Positions 33,687 through 57,499 of a DNA stretch of 64,000 nucleotides are shown piece by piece. A program made the position numbers and the translations under genes. The number at the start of each line of letters is the position of its first letter. The first letter of the stretch is position 1. Source of the DNA: Bacteroidales bacterium (lineage in GTDB: Bacteria; Bacteroidota; Bacteroidia; Bacteroidales; UBA932); NCBI GenBank assembly GCA_017616655.1, contig JAFZXU010000058.1, forward strand, positions 9,088-73,087, in the 5' to 3' direction. The notes beneath the pieces were generated by a model. It was given only the letters and a program-made list of their open reading frames with translations. It searched no databases and was not told where the DNA came from.

Positions 33687-34735
33687 CAGACCTCTATTCA
33701 ATAGCCAGCCGCTTCGACCTCGAAGGCAAGGCGACCGACATCCGCCCCCTGGGCGAAGGCTTCATCAACGACACCTACCTCGTATGCGTCGAGGGACGCA
33801 GGGAGCCGGACTACATACTTCAGCGCAAGAACCATCTGGTATTCCCCGACGTCCCCGCAATGATGGACAACATCGAGAGGGTCACCCGCCATATCAAGGC
33901 GAAGGTCGCCGACCCGCTTCGCGAGACACTCACCGTTATCCTCACGAAGGACGGCGCTCTATGCTACAAAGATGAAAACGGAAACTTCTGGGCCGTTTGT
34001 CTCTATATCAAGGGTTCCAAGAGCTACGACAGCGCCGACACCCCGGAGATGGCCTGGCAGGGAGGCGCCGGACTGGGCGAATTCCACCGCCTGGTGAGCG
34101 ACTTCGACGAGCCGCTGGCGGAGGTCATCAAGGGATTCCACAACATCCGCTTCCGCTTCGGCCAGTGGGACGAGGCGCTCAGGCGCGACGCCGCCGGAAG
34201 GGTTGCATCCCTCAGTGAGGAGATCGGCTGGATAGAGTCGCGCCGCGAGAAGATGCTCGACTTCTGGAAGAAGGTCGAAAGCGGCGAAATCCCCACCCGC
34301 GTAACCCATAACGACACCAAGATCAGCAATTTCCTCTTCGACGCCGAAGACGGCCACCTGCTCTGCGCCATCGACCTGGACACCATGATGTCCTCCACCC
34401 TGCTCAACGACATAGGCGACGCACTGCGCTCCTACACCAACACCGGAGCCGAGGACGATCCCGACCTATCGAAGGTTTCGATGAGCCCCGAGATGTACAA
34501 GGCCTACATCGGCGGCTACTTATCGAAAATGGAGCCGTACCTGACCCCCATCGAGAAGGAATACCTGGGATTCAGCGGCATCTACATCACCTACGAGCAG
34601 GTGCTGCGCTTTTTGATGGACTACATCGACGGCGACACCTACTACAAAATAAAGTACCCGGAGCACAACCTGGTGCGCACCCGGGCACAATACAAACTCC
34701 TCACAAGCATGGAGGAGTATCTCAGCAAAGCTTAA
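33680..34735 (+). CDS. APH-fold sugar anomeric kinase (NahK/AmgK-like phosphotransferase)
   Basis: The real start is the ATG at 33680 (MVTDLYSIASRF...). GEGFINDTY nucleotide loop, catalytic HNDTKISNFLFD, and IDLDT. Confidence 0.7.
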   Translation: MVTDLYSIASRFDLEGKATDIRPLGEGFINDTYLVCVEGRREPDYILQRKNHLVFPDVPAMMDNIERVTRHIKAKVADPLRETLTVILTKDGALCYKDENGNFWAVCLYIKGSKSYDSADTPEMAWQGGAGLGEFHRLVSDFDEPLAEVIKGFHNIRFRFGQWDEALRRDAAGRVASLSEEIGWIESRREKMLDFWKKVESGEIPTRVTHNDTKISNFLFDAEDGHLLCAIDLDTMMSSTLLNDIGDALRSYTNTGAEDDPDLSKVSMSPEMYKAYIGGYLSKMEPYLTPIEKEYLGFSGIYITYEQVLRFLMDYIDGDTYYKIKYPEHNLVRTRAQYKLLTSMEEYLSKA

Positions 34736-36656
34736 GGAAGACCTCCATAGCCTGGTACTCGGCCATTCCGAGAGCGTCGTACTGACGGGCCGTATTGGCG
34801 TTGCGCTCCTCGGCGCGCATCCAGAACTCGCGCGGGTCGTCGCCCGGGAAGGGGACGATGTCCTTCTGCGAGAGATGGCGGTAGATGGCGTGACGCTTCT
34901 CCACCACCTCGCCGGGACTCAGGGGAACGGCCATATCCACGCGGCCCAGCTCCCACTCCATCCAGGCGCCTCGGTAGAGCCATATATTGCAGGAATCCAG
35001 CCACTTCTCCCCCTCTTCGCGCAACTGCTCGATAGCCTCGAGGGCCGCTTCGGTGCAGACGCGGTGGGTGCCGTGAGGATCCGCGAGGTCGCCCGCCATA
35101 TAGATCTGGTCGGGCTTGATCTCCTTCATCAGATCCTTTATGATATCCACATCCTTCTGGGTGCGGGGGAACTTTGCCACGCCGCCCGACTCGTAGAAAG
35201 GCAGATTCAGGAAATGGGTGTTCTTCTTGGCGTGGAGGCCGAAACTGCGGACCGCAGCCTTCGCCTCCGAACGGCGGATGGCCGCCTTGAGGGCCAGCAG
35301 TTTGGCAGGTTCGGGCTCGCCCGGAACCTTGGACTCTATCAGGTGGCGGATCTCTGAGAAATTGTCCCCGTAACCCAGCTCCGCGGCGGCGTCGATATGC
35401 TGAAGCACCACGTCGTCGTGGACTGCAAGGTCACCAGAAGTCTGGTAGGCGATATGCACGTTATGCCCCTGGTGGACCAGACGGATGAGGGTGCCTCCCA
35501 TCGAGATGACATCGTCGTCGGGATGGGGCGAGAAGATCAGCACCGTCTTGGGGAAGGGCTCGGAAGCCACCGGACGGGTCGGCTCGTTGGTATTGGGCTT
35601 GCCTCCCGGCCATCCGGTAATGGTATGCTGGAGGTCGTTGAAAATCTCGATATTGATCTTGTCGAAGGGGCCGTAGAGGTCTATCAGCTCGCCGAGGGAG
35701 TTCTGGAGATAATCCTCGTGGGTAAGCTTCAGGATGGGCTTTCGGACCTCGGTGCAGAGCCATACCACGGCCTTGCGGCGGAACTTGCGGGTCCACTCGC
35801 AGGGGCCGATCTTCCAGGGCGCCACCACGCGGGTGAGAAGCGCGCCGGCCGTTTCGTCCACATAGAGCGAAGCGGCAGGATGGTTCTGGAAGCAGGTTGC
35901 GGGGCAGAGGGTGTCCGCAGGGCCTTCGGCGATGTTATAAACCGCCTTCGCCTTCTTCTCGCCCCACGCCATAAGGATCACGCGGCGGGCGCTCATCATG
36001 GTGTCGATGCCCACAGTAAGGGCCGAAGCGGGAGTGTTGGCTATGTCGCCGTTGAAGTTGTGCGCCTGGCGCTTGCGTGAGGCATAAGGCAGAATAACGG
36101 CGCGGGTGCGGCTTCCGAAGGAGGAACCTGCCTCATTGAAGCCCACCTGCCCGTTTTCGCCGATTCCGATCACCAGCAGGTCCACGTTCCGCGCTGCCAG
36201 GTCGAACTCAGCGCAGTACTGCGAGAGGCGTTCCTGCGGCACGGAACCGTCAGGTATGTGGACATTCTCCTTCAGGACGTCGATCTTGTCCACCAGGGAG
36301 TGATGAAGCCGGTAATTGCGGCTCTGCATCTCGTCGCGGCTGCTGGGATAGTACTCGTCGATGGAGAATATCTCCACGTTACGGAAGGAGACCTTTCCCT
36401 GGGAATAGGCCTCGCTCAGGATCCTGTAGAGCAGAAGCGGTGTCGAACCGGTAGTGAGGCCCAGCTTGAAGAGCGGCTTTTCCTCACCGGGAACGAAGGC
36501 GTTGATTTCGGAGATGACCTCATTCGCCACCTCTTCGCTGGCGTGGTAGGGGTCGGGGAAAAGCTCGGTGTAAACCTTGTCGTATCCGTGAAGGATGTCT
36601 TTGGGAAGTCCGGTCTCTATGAGGCCTCCGTCCTTGGGAAGGGAAAAGTGTTTCAT
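34722..36656 (-). CDS. nagB: glucosamine-6-phosphate deaminase fused to a PIG-L/LmbE-type deacetylase domain (long NagB)
   Basis: N-terminal NagB motifs GLTTGSTPLLLY and FSIDEYY. C-terminal PIG-L motif FSPHPDDDVISMGGTL, plus ADPHGTHRVC. Confidence 0.85.
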   Translation of the reverse strand: MKHFSLPKDGGLIETGLPKDILHGYDKVYTELFPDPYHASEEVANEVISEINAFVPGEEKPLFKLGLTTGSTPLLLYRILSEAYSQGKVSFRNVEIFSIDEYYPSSRDEMQSRNYRLHHSLVDKIDVLKENVHIPDGSVPQERLSQYCAEFDLAARNVDLLVIGIGENGQVGFNEAGSSFGSRTRAVILPYASRKRQAHNFNGDIANTPASALTVGIDTMMSARRVILMAWGEKKAKAVYNIAEGPADTLCPATCFQNHPAASLYVDETAGALLTRVVAPWKIGPCEWTRKFRRKAVVWLCTEVRKPILKLTHEDYLQNSLGELIDLYGPFDKINIEIFNDLQHTITGWPGGKPNTNEPTRPVASEPFPKTVLIFSPHPDDDVISMGGTLIRLVHQGHNVHIAYQTSGDLAVHDDVVLQHIDAAAELGYGDNFSEIRHLIESKVPGEPEPAKLLALKAAIRRSEAKAAVRSFGLHAKKNTHFLNLPFYESGGVAKFPRTQKDVDIIKDLMKEIKPDQIYMAGDLADPHGTHRVCTEAALEAIEQLREEGEKWLDSCNIWLYRGAWMEWELGRVDMAVPLSPGEVVEKRHAIYRHLSQKDIVPFPGDDPREFWMRAEERNANTARQYDALGMAEYQAMEVFLKLC

Positions 36657-57400: not shown

Positions 57401-57499
57401 GGTGATCGTTCCGGACACTTTGCGGCTCTGCGCAGCTGCCGCGAAAGTAACGGCAAGCAGAACCACAAAGGTTGCAAATCGTTTGATAATTAATTTCAT
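54401..57499 (-). CDS. susC: SusC/RagA-family TonB-dependent outer-membrane transporter
   Basis: Carboxypeptidase-regulatory-like N-domain ([37 protein letters not shown]). Plug motifs [10 protein letters not shown] and [27 protein letters not shown]. C-terminal ...GLKLSF. Confidence 0.95.
   Translation of the reverse strand: [1032 protein letters not shown]

Follow-up and report, generated by a model that had tools for sequence, protein, structure and literature searches.

The gene cluster described here raises the question of which polymer it serves. It lies in a window of 64 kb from an uncultured Bacteroidales bacterium of the rumen or gut, the window being the whole stretch of DNA that was analyzed, and the ORF listing gave 13 tightly packed genes over 23 kb on the minus strand, from susC (57499) to nagB-PIG-L (34722), rather than the 14 counted in the initial annotation, whose own list also comes to 13. 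Neighboring genes overlap by as much as 4 nt or are separated by up to 11 nt, with two exceptions, 41 nt between the LTD gene and the gene for a 1484-aa lipoprotein, and 60 nt between the latter and the transglutaminase (TGase) gene. This tight spacing agrees with the proposal that the cluster is one transcription unit, with the caveat that a strong, conserved hairpin and a T-run lie between the 1484-aa and TGase genes. All family-level gene assignments made previously were borne out by profile, PDB, and Foldseek matches. Of 62 related loci, about 40, from different species-level genomes of other Bacteroidales, keep the order susC-susD-cer-GH20-GH20-murQ-LTD-big-TGase-(DUF4015)-kinase-MFS, and because of this recurrence the cluster is not a product of chance. 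The related loci were all recovered from metagenomes of rumen, gut, and anaerobic digesters (uncultured Bacteroidales), and these habitat limits may simply mirror the phylogenetic limits of the clade. A murein-related PUL was predicted earlier in a Flavobacteriaceae symbiont (PMC10199937), but its enzyme set is quite different from that of the present locus.

The predicted gene products support the assignment of the locus as a SusC/SusD PUL for a cell-wall glycopeptide of N-acetyl-hexosamines. The first gene (54401..57499, minus strand, as are all features below) encodes a 1032-aa SusC/RagA TonB-dependent outer-membrane transporter (TIGR04056, 883.6 bits) with CarbopepD_reg_2 and Plug domains and an SPI-type signal peptide, and it is followed by a gene for a 660-aa SusD-family surface lipoprotein (52412..54394; PF07980, 1.4e-46; PF14322, 9e-27; lipobox LVSC-NDG). 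The next product (51062..52408) is a 448-aa lipoprotein with a neutral-ceramidase fold, comprising the catalytic domain only (PF04734, Ceramidase_alk, 34 bits), whose AF2 model (pLDDT 72) matched the neutral ceramidases of P. aeruginosa and human in Foldseek (E 8e-17 to 1e-15). H110/H113/H115/S116, H207, and E368/E372 are invariant in 17 homologues, and the stretch after the lipobox, CGGPKLK, is non-acidic; on its presumed substrate, this protein would act as a periplasmic amidase that cleaves the stem peptide off the sugar acid. Two GH20 beta-N-acetylhexosaminidases follow, one soluble and periplasmic (49270..51060, 596 aa; PF00728, 3e-111; PF02838; SPI signal without a Cys) and one a lipoprotein (47435..49273, 612 aa; PF00728, 9e-121; PF02838; Fn3_assoc; lipobox VLSC-TAPAG). 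The last two genes encode a 397-aa NagP/GluP-type inner-membrane MFS permease (36653..37846; MFS_1), which scored above the cut-off for TIGR01272 gluP (219 bits) and below it for NF046060 NagP (278 bits), and a 644-aa fusion of NagB (GlcN-6-P deaminase) with a PIG-L-type deacetylase (34722..36656; NF002557, 769.6 bits; PRK02122, 770 bits; PF01182; PF02585).

The surface enzymes, which would set the specificity of the locus, most closely resemble enzymes of methanogenic archaea and of the viruses that infect them, and therefore the target may be pseudomurein, the archaeal wall polymer in which L-amino-acid peptides cross-link a glycan of beta-1,3-linked GlcNAc/GalNAc and N-acetyl-L-talosaminuronic acid (NAT). 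For instance, the 353-aa TGase lipoprotein (39626..40687) combines PMBR-like repeats with a transglutaminase-like Cys-His-Asp peptidase core (Transglut_core, 1.4e-18), the same architecture as that of Pei-type pseudomurein endoisopeptidases, and would be a surface hydrolase of peptide cross-links. Its true start is the ATG at 40687; a TTG at 40711 falls inside the hairpin and was rejected. The PMBR match was just below the cut-off in this protein (24.2 bits) and above it in the L005 orthologue (28.3 bits), and was missing in some orthologues. The catalytic domain of the TGase shares 43% identity (E 2e-33) with Drs3_00035, a Methanobacterium virus Drs3 protein that contains two PMBRs, a Transglut_core domain, and a weak Peptidase_C71 match. 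Among 50,697 phage records, the second-best match was a human-gut Methanobacteriales virus and no other fell below E 1e-5, the next being an Acinetobacter phage (4e-4). Homologues of the TGase formed 448 representative clusters at E <= 1e-10, and 10 of the 12 named clusters sampled were from Methanobacteriales, many of them titled 'pseudomurein-binding repeat-containing protein', while two were bacterial.

The two TIM-barrel lipoproteins encoded by genes 7 and 10 also have, as their nearest relatives outside the clade, Methanobacteriales proteins that carry pseudomurein-binding repeats (28-36% identity to PMBR-carrying DUF4015 proteins, E 1e-30 to 1e-45). The product of gene 7 (45244..46587, 447 aa), a putative surface endo-glycosidase, has an N-terminal LTD-like beta-sandwich (29.6 bits, below the cut-off) and a DUF4015-type barrel in which the motif HLDYIR is invariant (AF2 pLDDT 90.7). 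Its Methanobacteriales relatives were found at E ~1e-30, in comparison with 1e-8 or weaker for bacterial GHL10 proteins. The product of gene 10 (38703..39614, 303 aa; PF13200, 1e-8; PF00704, 9e-6; lipobox CKKAEEP), a DUF4015/GH18-like barrel which may be a second surface glycosidase, is 35-36% identical to PMBR-linked DUF4015 proteins of Methanobacteriales (E 1e-43 to 1e-45), as compared with E 1e-6 to 1e-11 for bacterial GHL10/YddW. Both barrels matched that of P0262 (33% identity, E 6e-29, for gene 7; 30% for gene 10), an apparently methanogen-type protein in which a TIM barrel, PMBR repeats, and a TGase domain are fused. The 1484-aa lipoprotein (40748..45202) has an acidic stretch after its lipobox Cys (CVDPEEEGD) and an N-terminal PMBR-like module. 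Its first 190 aa are homologous (E down to 3e-11) to modules for wall binding at the N terminus of TGase-family proteins, including proteins of Methanobrevibacter smithii and Methanothermobacter wolfeii. It also has one BACON domain (residues 464-521, 3.7e-9) and five repeats with a common motif at a spacing of ~190-330 aa, and would be a surface glycan-binding protein.

A serious rival, which we regard as possible rather than probable, is that the substrate is bacterial peptidoglycan, as was first proposed for this locus. The coherent route for a cell-wall glycopeptide in that proposal stood, but the MurNAc specificity was not supported as stated, because it rests on membership in the MurQ and MurK families and both proteins are divergent paralogues here. 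The MurQ-like SIS-domain protein (46584..47429, 281 aa, cytoplasmic; PDB 4s12, 1.4e-56), whose gene is an integral, conserved member of the locus across relatives, favors the rival in that it passed the NCBI subfamily model for MurNAc-6-P etherase (NF003915, 284.5 bits) and retains both catalytic Glu residues; it fell below the cut-off of the equivalog model TIGR00274 (232 versus 302). To our knowledge, the MurQ and MurK families have been shown to act only on MurNAc-6-P and on MurNAc/GlcNAc, respectively. However, when all 44 PUL orthologues were compared with canonical MurQs, a set of only 8 that spans six phyla and includes Phocaeicola of the Bacteroidales, 10 positions were changed, seven from a residue found in 8/8 (S70G, P83N, A102N, A152C, L203C, N204D, L232V) and three from one found in 7/8 (I96L, G109E, A137S), and GTSGR has become GTGGK. 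The MurK/K1058-family kinase (37853..38701, 282 aa, cytoplasmic), which had no Pfam match, was recognized through PDB entries for these two proteins and their structural-genomics homologues, namely 1zxo (7e-59), 8oqk (K1058, 8.5e-55), and 8oqw (Tannerella MurK, 2.6e-49). Its pocket has N34, Y35, M94, D133, and S134 in place of F34, F35, T94, S133, and P134, and thus is changed at exactly the positions, F34, T94, S133, and P134, that give the lactyl ether room in Tannerella MurK (PMC10465942). N34, M94, D133, and S134 were kept in every PUL orthologue examined, with Y or F at position 35. Phocaeicola has a canonical murK(SPL)-murQ pair, to which the MurQ-like protein and the kinase are only 48% and 39% identical, respectively; the two form a co-diverged pair of paralogues.

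Two further points favor bacterial peptidoglycan. It is far more common than pseudomurein in rumen, gut, and digester habitats. The nearest solved structures to the gene 7 barrel, Cwp19 (TM 0.53) and SleL, the best single-domain matches, act on bacterial peptidoglycan (PMC6016235). In contrast, profile searches of the locus for the canonical murein hydrolase families (GH23/25/73/171/3, Amidase_2/3, NlpC/P60) found none, which counts for pseudomurein, as does the similarity of the TGase and TIM-barrel lipoproteins to methanogen proteins. Against pseudomurein, which lacks MurNAc, new specificities would be needed for both the kinase and the etherase, 30-45% identity to methanogen proteins does not fix specificity, and the PMBR matches are weak. 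In addition, no gene for NAT catabolism was recognized, and we know of no pathway for it. On balance, a utilization locus for archaeal pseudomurein is the most likely reading, to which we give about an even chance.

Regulation of the locus may involve several elements. The mid-operon hairpin (40709..40740), detected in a terminator-like scan, has a GC-rich stem of 12-13 bp, an invariant loop CCUGACCG, and a following T-run. It recurs at the corresponding position in most of the orthologous loci, with compensatory changes in 7 of 12 pairs, and matched no Rfam family; it could be an attenuator, a terminator, or an mRNA-stabilizing element, and probably tunes expression of the genes downstream of the 1484-aa gene. 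Within the susC promoter region (57577..57658) are a -7 box of the Bacteroidetes type, TATATTTG, at 57577-57586 and, spaced 20 bp apart, two AACGAAAC repeats at 57631-57638 and 57651-57658; no other copy of AACGAAAC occurs in the 64 kb. Repeats of this motif also lie between deoR and susC in the related locus L185, and the repeats are a candidate operator. A gene for a 254-aa DeoR/AgaR-like regulator (32173..32937; HTH_DeoR, DeoRC; AgaR, 199 bits, below the cut-off) lies 1.8 kb past the operon end; its orthologue in L185 (65% identical) is divergent from and adjoins susC, and orthologues adjoin the PUL in L017-L019 and L038. This repressor is likely the regulator of the locus and probably controls the susC promoter through the AACGAAAC repeats.

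If pseudomurein is the substrate, at the cell surface the 1484-aa lipoprotein and SusD would bind wall fragments through PMBR-like modules, the TGase would hydrolyze the peptide cross-links in the manner of the Pei endoisopeptidases from methanogen viruses, and the two DUF4015 lipoproteins would cut the glycan. In the periplasm, glycopeptides imported via SusC would lose their peptide from the uronic-acid carboxyl to the ceramidase-fold enzyme and their terminal beta-GlcNAc/GalNAc to the GH20 enzymes. The permease would take up the sugars, possibly including the disaccharide NAT-(1->3)-GlcNAc, and the MurK-like kinase would phosphorylate O6. The MurQ-like enzyme would then strip the 3-O substituent by elimination-hydration chemistry, as MurQ does with the 3-O-lactyl group, and NagB-PIG-L would convert GlcNAc-6-P to fructose-6-P. 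The most likely source of the pseudomurein would be the Methanobacteriales, which live in the same rumen, gut, and digester environments, and these Bacteroidales may target the archaeal wall instead of bacterial peptidoglycan or in addition to it.

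It is very probable that the locus at 34722-57499, on the minus strand of the window, is a PUL for a murein-type wall glycopeptide. The ORF listing gives 13 co-oriented minus-strand ORFs, from susC (54401-57499) to the nagB-PIG-L fusion (34722-36656); the initial annotation had counted 14 genes, although its own list also holds 13, and every one of its family-level gene calls was reproduced. SusC (TIGR04056, 884 bits) and SusD (PF07980, 1e-46) are encoded next to each other with a spacing of 6 nt, and they are followed by a ceramidase-like protein (gene 3), two GH20 enzymes, a MurQ-like protein, a protein with an LTD-like domain and a TIM barrel (gene 7), a BACON-containing repeat protein of 1484 amino acids (gene 8), a PMBR (pseudomurein-binding repeat) and Transglut_core protein (gene 9, the TGase protein), a DUF4015/GH18-like TIM barrel (gene 10), a MurK-like kinase, a NagP/GluP-type MFS permease and, last, NagB-PIG-L. 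Besides the adjacent susC and susD, the locus has the co-oriented enzymes and surface lipoproteins by which a PUL is recognized, namely two GH20 enzymes and two TIM-barrel lipoproteins. The ceramidase-like protein has a Pfam match of 34 bits, and its AF2 model, which is of moderate quality, matched bacterial and human neutral ceramidase in Foldseek with an E value of 1e-16. A sequence search of the PDB with genes 3, 7, 9 and 10 returned nothing useful, and a fold search was required. Self-BLAST of the 1484-aa protein returned the full-length match alone, and its repeats were read from the sequence by eye.

The signal sequences predict a sensible topology overall. A lipobox followed by an acidic stretch, which is the surface type, is found in SusD, the LTD-TIM protein, the 1484-aa protein, the TGase protein and the small TIM barrel. 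The ceramidase-like protein and both GH20 enzymes look periplasmic, because the lipobox of the former and of one GH20 enzyme is not followed by acidic residues and the other GH20 enzyme has a plain signal peptide. The remaining proteins are predicted to be cytoplasmic or integral to the membrane. Outer membrane import, GH20 trimming, NagP-type uptake and a route of phosphorylation, deacetylation and deamination to fructose-6-P are common to this locus and to the GlcNAc/chitin systems of Bacteroidota (SusCD with GH18, GH20, NagP, a kinase and NagA/NagB), but the locus has in addition a peptidase, an amidase, binding modules of the PMBR-like kind and a MurQ-type enzyme, and it is without a bona fide GH18 chitinase.

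The proposal that all of these genes form a single transcription unit agrees with their tight spacing, since neighbours overlap by 4 nt or lie 1-11 nt apart except for two wider gaps (41 nt in front of the 1484-aa gene, 60 nt in front of the TGase gene), but the unit may not be a simple one, since a conserved hairpin with a T-run lies inside. This hairpin (40709-40740, minus strand), located between the 1484-aa and TGase genes, has a GC-rich stem of 12-13 bp with the core GGGGCCUGACCGCCCC. The start of the TGase gene was placed at ATG 40687, because TTG 40711 falls within the hairpin. At the equivalent position, the hairpin is kept in most orthologous loci (related loci of other genomes, designated by L numbers: L003-L009, L014, L016, L017, L026, L029, L031, L034, L038-L041, L058 and L059), with a loop that does not vary and with 7 of 12 pairs changed in a compensatory manner, and 3' of it a TGCCAA-like motif is usually conserved as well. 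No Rfam family matched the hairpin or anything else in the locus, and a metagenome scan with the 16-nt hairpin core gave at least 120 matches from unrelated environments, which is about chance level and uninformative. The hairpin may serve as an attenuator, a terminator or a processing site, and given its conservation the locus is possibly one operon with an internal attenuator or stabiliser.

A divergent rpsU gene and a gene for an RRM protein, which has its own terminator, are located upstream of susC; therefore, the susC promoter must be within 57500-57745, an interval in which a Bacteroidetes -7 box (TATATTTG) was found. No HTCS, SusR or ECF/anti-sigma pair was found at the locus. A DeoR/AgaR-like gene (32173-32937) is located 1.8 kb past the end of the operon; its orthologue in L185, which is 65% identical, is divergent from susC, and orthologues also adjoin the PUL in L017-L019 and L038. 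The susC promoter carries two direct repeats of AACGAAAC (57631-57658, minus strand), 20 bp apart, which are the only copies within 64 kb, and the same sequence occurs several times in the deoR-susC intergenic region of L185 (L185 4800-4870), which belongs to a different species. These repeats are a candidate DeoR operator. Because of the linkage of deoR to the PUL and the presence of the repeats in both promoters, we infer that the locus may be controlled by a DeoR-type repressor responsive to sugar phosphate. A 10-mer common to the susC and deoR promoters was also considered as an operator and was rejected, being merely the Bacteroidetes -7 box.

At its 3' end, the operon is convergent with a gene for a NahK-type N-acetylhexosamine 1-kinase (33680-34735, plus strand; 3e-78 to B. 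longum NahK; BT4240 family), which is preceded by a gene for a CBM9-like protein (33066-33686, plus strand). The idea that this APH-family gene and its neighbour form an AmgK/MurU pair was discarded, the former being a HexNAc 1-kinase of the NahK type and the latter not a nucleotidyltransferase. A NahK-family kinase gene is also found 3' of the PUL and co-directional with it in L003/L004 (76% identical) and L031/L039 (40-42% identical), and is therefore possibly linked to it in function, for instance in GalNAc or anomeric HexNAc salvage. The rest of the window is housekeeping (Nqr, UvrD, FtsK, ParAB and an MltD-like SLT+LysM protein), and neither anmK, murK nor murT was found in the remainder of the 64 kb. 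The MltD-like lytic transglycosylase (20191-21789, plus strand), with an SLT and two LysM domains, is encoded beside parAB and a DUF5683 gene and probably serves housekeeping murein turnover unrelated to the PUL. Two unusual fusions were also noted. One joins a PAP2 phosphatase domain to a lipoate-protein ligase (29257-30903, plus strand, 548 aa); the other is an ORF of 554 aa (27672-29336, minus strand) whose C-terminal 160 residues are an ECF-type sigma-70 factor (regions 2 and 4) behind a long N-terminal extension, and its start codon is possibly miscalled.

The link to MurNAc drawn in the initial annotation depends on the MurQ- and MurK-like proteins, in which canonical lactyl-pocket and MurQ residues are altered across the clade. 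The kinase has no Pfam match, and over its full length it matches MurK (8oqw) with an E value of 2.6e-49, K1058 with 8.5e-55 and 1zxo with 7e-59. In MurK, the small residues S133-P134-L135 and T94 give space to the lactyl ether, and F34/F35 line the N-acetyl pocket (PMC10465942). The SPL motif is found in T. forsythia MurK, B. thetaiotaomicron 1zxo, P. gingivalis 1zbs and Phocaeicola MurK; in its place the window kinase shows D-S-C, together with M94, N34 and Y35. Every one of the approximately 37 PUL orthologues (counterparts in related Bacteroidales loci) that were examined has N34, M94, D133 and S134, where Tannerella has F34, T94, S133 and P134, and their motif is D-S-(C/L), so that the combination of S133-P134-L135 and T94 was found neither in the window kinase nor in its orthologues.

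The MurQ-like protein passes the NF003915 model (284.5 bits, cut-off 168) and falls below the cut-offs of the TIGR00274 equivalog (232 vs 302) and PRK12570 (246 vs 255). It matches Yersinia MurQ at 1e-56 and is 48% identical to Phocaeicola MurQ vs 42% to the E. coli enzyme. Both catalytic glutamates (E83 and E114 of E. coli MurQ) are kept, with LD(I/V)LE and EEAEDD aligning with the canonical DASE and EGAEDD. When canonical enzymes from eight taxa of six phyla were aligned with 44 PUL orthologues, S70G, P83N, A102N, A152C, L203C, N204D and L232V were found in all 44, the canonical residue being present in 8/8 of the former, and the orthologues also have I96L, G109E and A137S, for which the canonical residue is present in 7/8. 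In all, ten invariant or near-invariant positions of canonical MurQ are changed. The signature GTSGR has become GTGGK, and the residues that canonical MurQs share around the active-site loops (GTSGR, E-x-PPT and QKL-LN) are not all kept in the PUL orthologues. In Phocaeicola (massiliensis), the canonical murK-murQ genes are an adjacent pair. Because the kinase pocket residues and the MurQ positions are both altered, and Phocaeicola keeps the canonical pair, the PUL kinase and etherase are, as judged from sequence, a co-diverged paralogue set, which probably performs unchanged chemistry on a different 3-O-substituted HexNAc.

Among the closest known systems is the MurT-MurK-MurQ module for MurNAc scavenging of Tannerella forsythia (PMC5790795, PMC10465942). 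Both systems combine genes for a kinase of the MurK family and an etherase of the MurQ family with one for a sugar permease of the inner membrane, with predicted 6-phosphorylation followed by elimination of the 3-O-substituent to give GlcNAc-6-P. The differences are that the permease of the locus is an MFS protein of the NagP/GluP type, no MurT homologue being recognized, and that the pair forms part of a SusCD locus of 13 genes, which also encodes hydrolases of the surface and the periplasm.

The surface peptidase has its closest known relatives in methanogens and their viruses. In a tblastn search of 50,697 phage genomes, the TGase lipoprotein (Transglut_core, 1.4e-18) had two significant matches only. 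One was Drs3_00035, the PMBR protein of Methanobacterium virus Drs3, with 43% identity over the catalytic domain (E 2e-33) and alignment of the GNCCD, GHV and DPS motifs that hold the Cys, His and Asp; the other was a protein of a human-gut Methanobacteriales virus. The psiM2/psiM100 Pei proteins were absent from the matches, and gene 10, the ceramidase-like protein and one repeat of the 1484-aa protein had no matches in the phage search. Drs3_00035 has two strong PMBR repeats, a Transglut_core domain and a weak Peptidase_C71 match (20.7 bits, below the cut-off), which by its domains is the architecture of a Pei endoisopeptidase. A profile-free search of 1.8 billion representative proteins placed homologues of the TGase protein in 448 clusters at E <= 1e-10; among 30 clusters sampled, 12 were named, and 10 of these were Methanobacteriales (Methanobrevibacter smithii, Methanosphaera, Methanobacterium and Methanothermobacter, often under the name pseudomurein-binding repeat-containing protein), the remaining two being Omnitrophota and a Clostridia MAG. 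A C-terminal transglutaminase-like Cys-His-Asp core and, apparently, N-terminal PMBR-type repeats are common to the TGase protein, Drs3_00035 and the Pei enzymes (PeiW/PeiP, MEROPS C71). However, the TGase protein is a lipoprotein of a bacterial PUL, unlike the viral lysins and archaeal wall proteins, it had no match to Peptidase_C71 (PF12386) at E < 0.01, and its PMBR match is weak (24.2 bits, cut-off 24.9). This match reaches 28.3 bits in the L005 orthologue, and in others it is weak or missing. PMBR-like motifs are visible by eye. Furthermore, the 1484-aa protein shows homology over its first 190 residues to the wall-binding modules at the N-terminus of TGase-family homologues.

The two TIM barrels point in the same direction. 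A homologous protein, P0262 (L189 5416-7458), carries a DUF4015/GH18-like TIM barrel, PMBR repeats and a TGase domain in one chain, the barrel sharing 30-33% identity with genes 10 and 7. A search with this barrel returned Methanobacteriales proteins, many with PMBR, in the first tier, the Bacteroidales LTD+DUF4015 family in the second and bacterial GHL10/YddW in the third. Gene 10 itself is 35-36% identical to Methanobacteriales proteins (E ~1e-44), whereas its matches to GHL10/YddW have E values of 1e-6 to 1e-11, and bacterial GHL10/YddW proteins are far more distant from the locus barrels than the Methanobacteriales DUF4015 family. Fusions of a barrel (DUF4015- or YddW-type) with PMBR and a Pei-like TGase domain also occur in P0352/P0577 and P0316/P0542; the P0352 cluster is named Methanobacterium sp., and P0262 is from an unassigned metagenome contig. 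From their domains, these fusion proteins may be bifunctional pseudomurein autolysins, which are apparently uncharacterised.

Genes 7 and 10 matched DUF4015 and GH18 only, and not the GHL10 Pfam family PF02638; for both, the best E values against GHL10 proteins are 1e-6 to 1e-11. The best single-domain match of the AF2 model of gene 7 (pLDDT 90.7) was Cwp19 of Clostridioides difficile (TM 0.53), followed by SleL. Cwp19 is a GHL10 TIM barrel with peptidoglycan lytic transglycosylase activity, and the cortex-lytic SleL likewise acts on bacterial peptidoglycan (PMC6016235, PMC5765458). The conserved Asp-Tyr pair of GHL10 is present as the invariant D289-Y290 on the barrel of gene 7, corresponding to D196-Y197 of Cwp19, although gene 7 has no significant sequence match to Cwp19. 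The model thus has a fold that is in use for murein-type glycans, and it does not discriminate between murein and pseudomurein. The multi-domain GH2/GH13 proteins at the top of the Foldseek matches were set aside, as they reflect a beta-sandwich and TIM-barrel layout (TM 0.2-0.4, rmsd >13).

A search for synteny in other Bacteroidales showed that the arrangement recurs. The LTD-TIM protein has approximately 300 homologues, all from uncultured Bacteroidales, and a scan with one genome per species gave 62 loci, whose hosts are MAGs, Candidatus Cryptobacteroides among them, obtained from rumen (goat, yak, buffalo and deer), gut (human, chicken and others) and anaerobic digester samples. The order susC-susD-cer-GH20-GH20-murQ-LTD-big-TGase-(DUF4015)-kinase-MFS, in which big is the 1484-aa gene, was found in approximately 40 of them and persists where protein identity has fallen to about 45-55%. 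Rearranged versions also retain the murQ-like gene inside the locus, and an independent locus anchored on the ceramidase-like gene has the identical order. Several genomes have a second, shorter module, (TGase)-susC-susD-LTD-big-DUF4015-kinase-MFS, which lacks the genes for the ceramidase-like, GH20 and MurQ-like proteins (L015/L046/L059 in one MAG, L011/L030 in one MAG, L025, L049, L056 and L062), in some cases with tandem susCD pairs; the composition of these modules suggests diversification over wall chemotypes. In another Bacteroidales genome, a ceramidase-like gene and one GH20 gene lie together as a pair outside any SusCD locus, beside an FGE-sulfatase-like gene (L186 10001-13179), and may therefore be a functional unit by themselves.

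Peptides of pseudomurein consist of L-amino acids and sit on the carboxyl group of N-acetyl-L-talosaminuronic acid (NAT). The glycan is made of beta-1,3-linked GlcNAc or GalNAc alternating with NAT (Kandler and Koenig; Leps et al. 1984). We give an even chance to pseudomurein being the target of the locus. More tentatively, we propose a dedicated PUL with which rumen and gut Bacteroidales would use the pseudomurein wall of methanogens, with enzymes apparently related to the wall hydrolases of methanogens and archaeal viruses and with a neofunctionalised MurK/MurQ pair, whose MurQ-like member would be an eliminase that frees NAT. In such a pathway, the PMBR-like binding proteins would bind the wall, the Pei-like peptidase would cut the cross-links (at the epsilon-Ala-Lys isopeptide bond, if it acts as the Pei enzymes do), the two TIM barrels would cleave the glycan and SusCD would import the fragments. 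The periplasmic amidase would then cut the amide bond between sugar acid and peptide, and the GH20 enzymes would trim terminal beta-HexNAc, followed by NagP-type uptake, 6-phosphorylation and NagB-PIG-L. By pure inference, the MurQ-like enzyme would eliminate the 3-O-linked NAT from NAT-(1->3)-GlcNAc-6-P, which would be chemically equal to the removal of the 3-O-lactyl group from MurNAc-6-P.

The initial annotation read the locus as one for the utilization of bacterial peptidoglycan, from necromass or as muropeptides, which we regard as possible though rather doubtful. The TIM barrels would then be muramidases, glucosaminidases or lytic transglycosylases and the TGase-like protein would cut murein peptide bridges; in the periplasm, the ceramidase-like protein would be a MurNAc-L-Ala amidase and GH20 would split GlcNAc-MurNAc; the MFS permease would import GlcNAc and MurNAc, a single dual-specificity kinase would convert both to their 6-phosphates, MurQ would remove D-lactate and NagB-PIG-L would complete the route. 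Such a pathway is complete with known chemistries alone, and it is consistent with the score of the MurQ-family protein (284 bits) and its two catalytic glutamates, with the structural proximity of the gene 7 barrel to Cwp19 and SleL (PMC6016235, PMC5765458), and with a kinase of the MurK/K1058 family, in which K1058 binds MurNAc despite a different motif, RAG (PMC10465942). In addition, uncultured Bacteroidetes were enriched on peptidoglycan in anaerobic enrichments (PMC7511781). However, the kinase and the MurQ-like protein are invariably not the canonical Bacteroidales versions across the clade, and the surface peptidase and glycosidases are nearest to those of pseudomurein-walled archaea and their viruses, with no similar endolysin of a bacterial phage in the phage search.

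Comparison with the one murein PUL predicted elsewhere, in a Flavobacteriaceae (Urechidicola) mussel symbiont, leads to the same view. Both loci have SusCD, murQ, nagB, deoR and an MFS permease, and the authors read the symbiont PUL as one for murein metabolism (PMC10199937). Its enzymes are GH3, GH18, GH171 (NamZ), an AmpD amidase, DacA, an L-Ala-D/L-Glu epimerase, AmpG and a sodium symporter (PMC10199937), none of which is found in the window locus, where there are instead two GH20 enzymes, a ceramidase-fold amidase, DUF4015 barrels and the Pei-like peptidase. Unlike the symbiont PUL, the locus has no family of classical murein hydrolases or amidases and neither NamZ nor NagZ (PMC10199937), and no classical murein-degrading family of any kind was found in it. 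The earlier statement that no characterised PUL of such composition was known stands, since this prediction was the only one retrieved and no characterised peptidoglycan PUL was found in the searched literature, which consisted of papers open without subscription.

It is improbable, in our view, that the locus serves wall debris in general, murein as well as pseudomurein, with enzymes recruited from methanogens and with MurQ/MurK paralogues that accept several 3-O-substituted HexNAc. This would account for the mixed signals, and the two or three paralogous susCD-LTD-big modules per genome (L015/L046/L059; L011/L030; L025) suggest diversification over chemotypes. Yet PULs are usually narrow in substrate, no direct sign of promiscuity was seen, and the altered pocket residues are strictly conserved, which suggests one defined substrate. 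A generic amino-sugar PUL for fungal chitin, host N-glycans or mucin, or glycosphingolipids, with the MurQ-like gene as a passenger for recycling of the organism's own wall, would fit the two GH20 enzymes, the GH18-like barrels, NagP, NagB, the ceramidase fold and the neighbouring HexNAc 1-kinase, which resembles the GalNAc kinase BT4240 (PMC11992087), but is very unlikely, given that the MurQ-like gene lies mid-operon and is kept in every arrangement, that the use of chitin or N-glycans gives no role to a TGase/PMBR peptidase or to PMBR-like binding modules, and that the locus has no GH18 chitinase, GH85/GH18 endo-N-acetylglucosaminidase, sialidase, fucosidase or sulfatase.

PULs and modules of the MurK/MurQ type are known; what appears to be new is the set of enzymes, the pair of kinase and etherase paralogues and a substrate that is probably archaeal. 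If the target is bacterial peptidoglycan, the locus is still an uncharacterised and oddly composed necromass PUL without classical murein hydrolases. With either substrate, the MurK-like/MurQ-like pair offers new testable specificities in two enzyme families, both of which automatic annotation usually labels MurNAc-specific, and this calls for caution in the annotation of genomes. To our knowledge, digestion of methanogen walls is so far known only from the Pei enzymes of archaeal viruses and prophages. If the pseudomurein reading is true, the locus would be the first known case of a bacterial system that digests these walls and would encode the first bacterial pathway of pseudomurein catabolism, thereby giving a first handle on this process and a natural source of enzymes for methanogen lysis. 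Its secreted and bacterially expressed wall hydrolases would be of interest for methane mitigation, and the locus would connect Bacteroidales trophically with the methanogens of rumen and gut.
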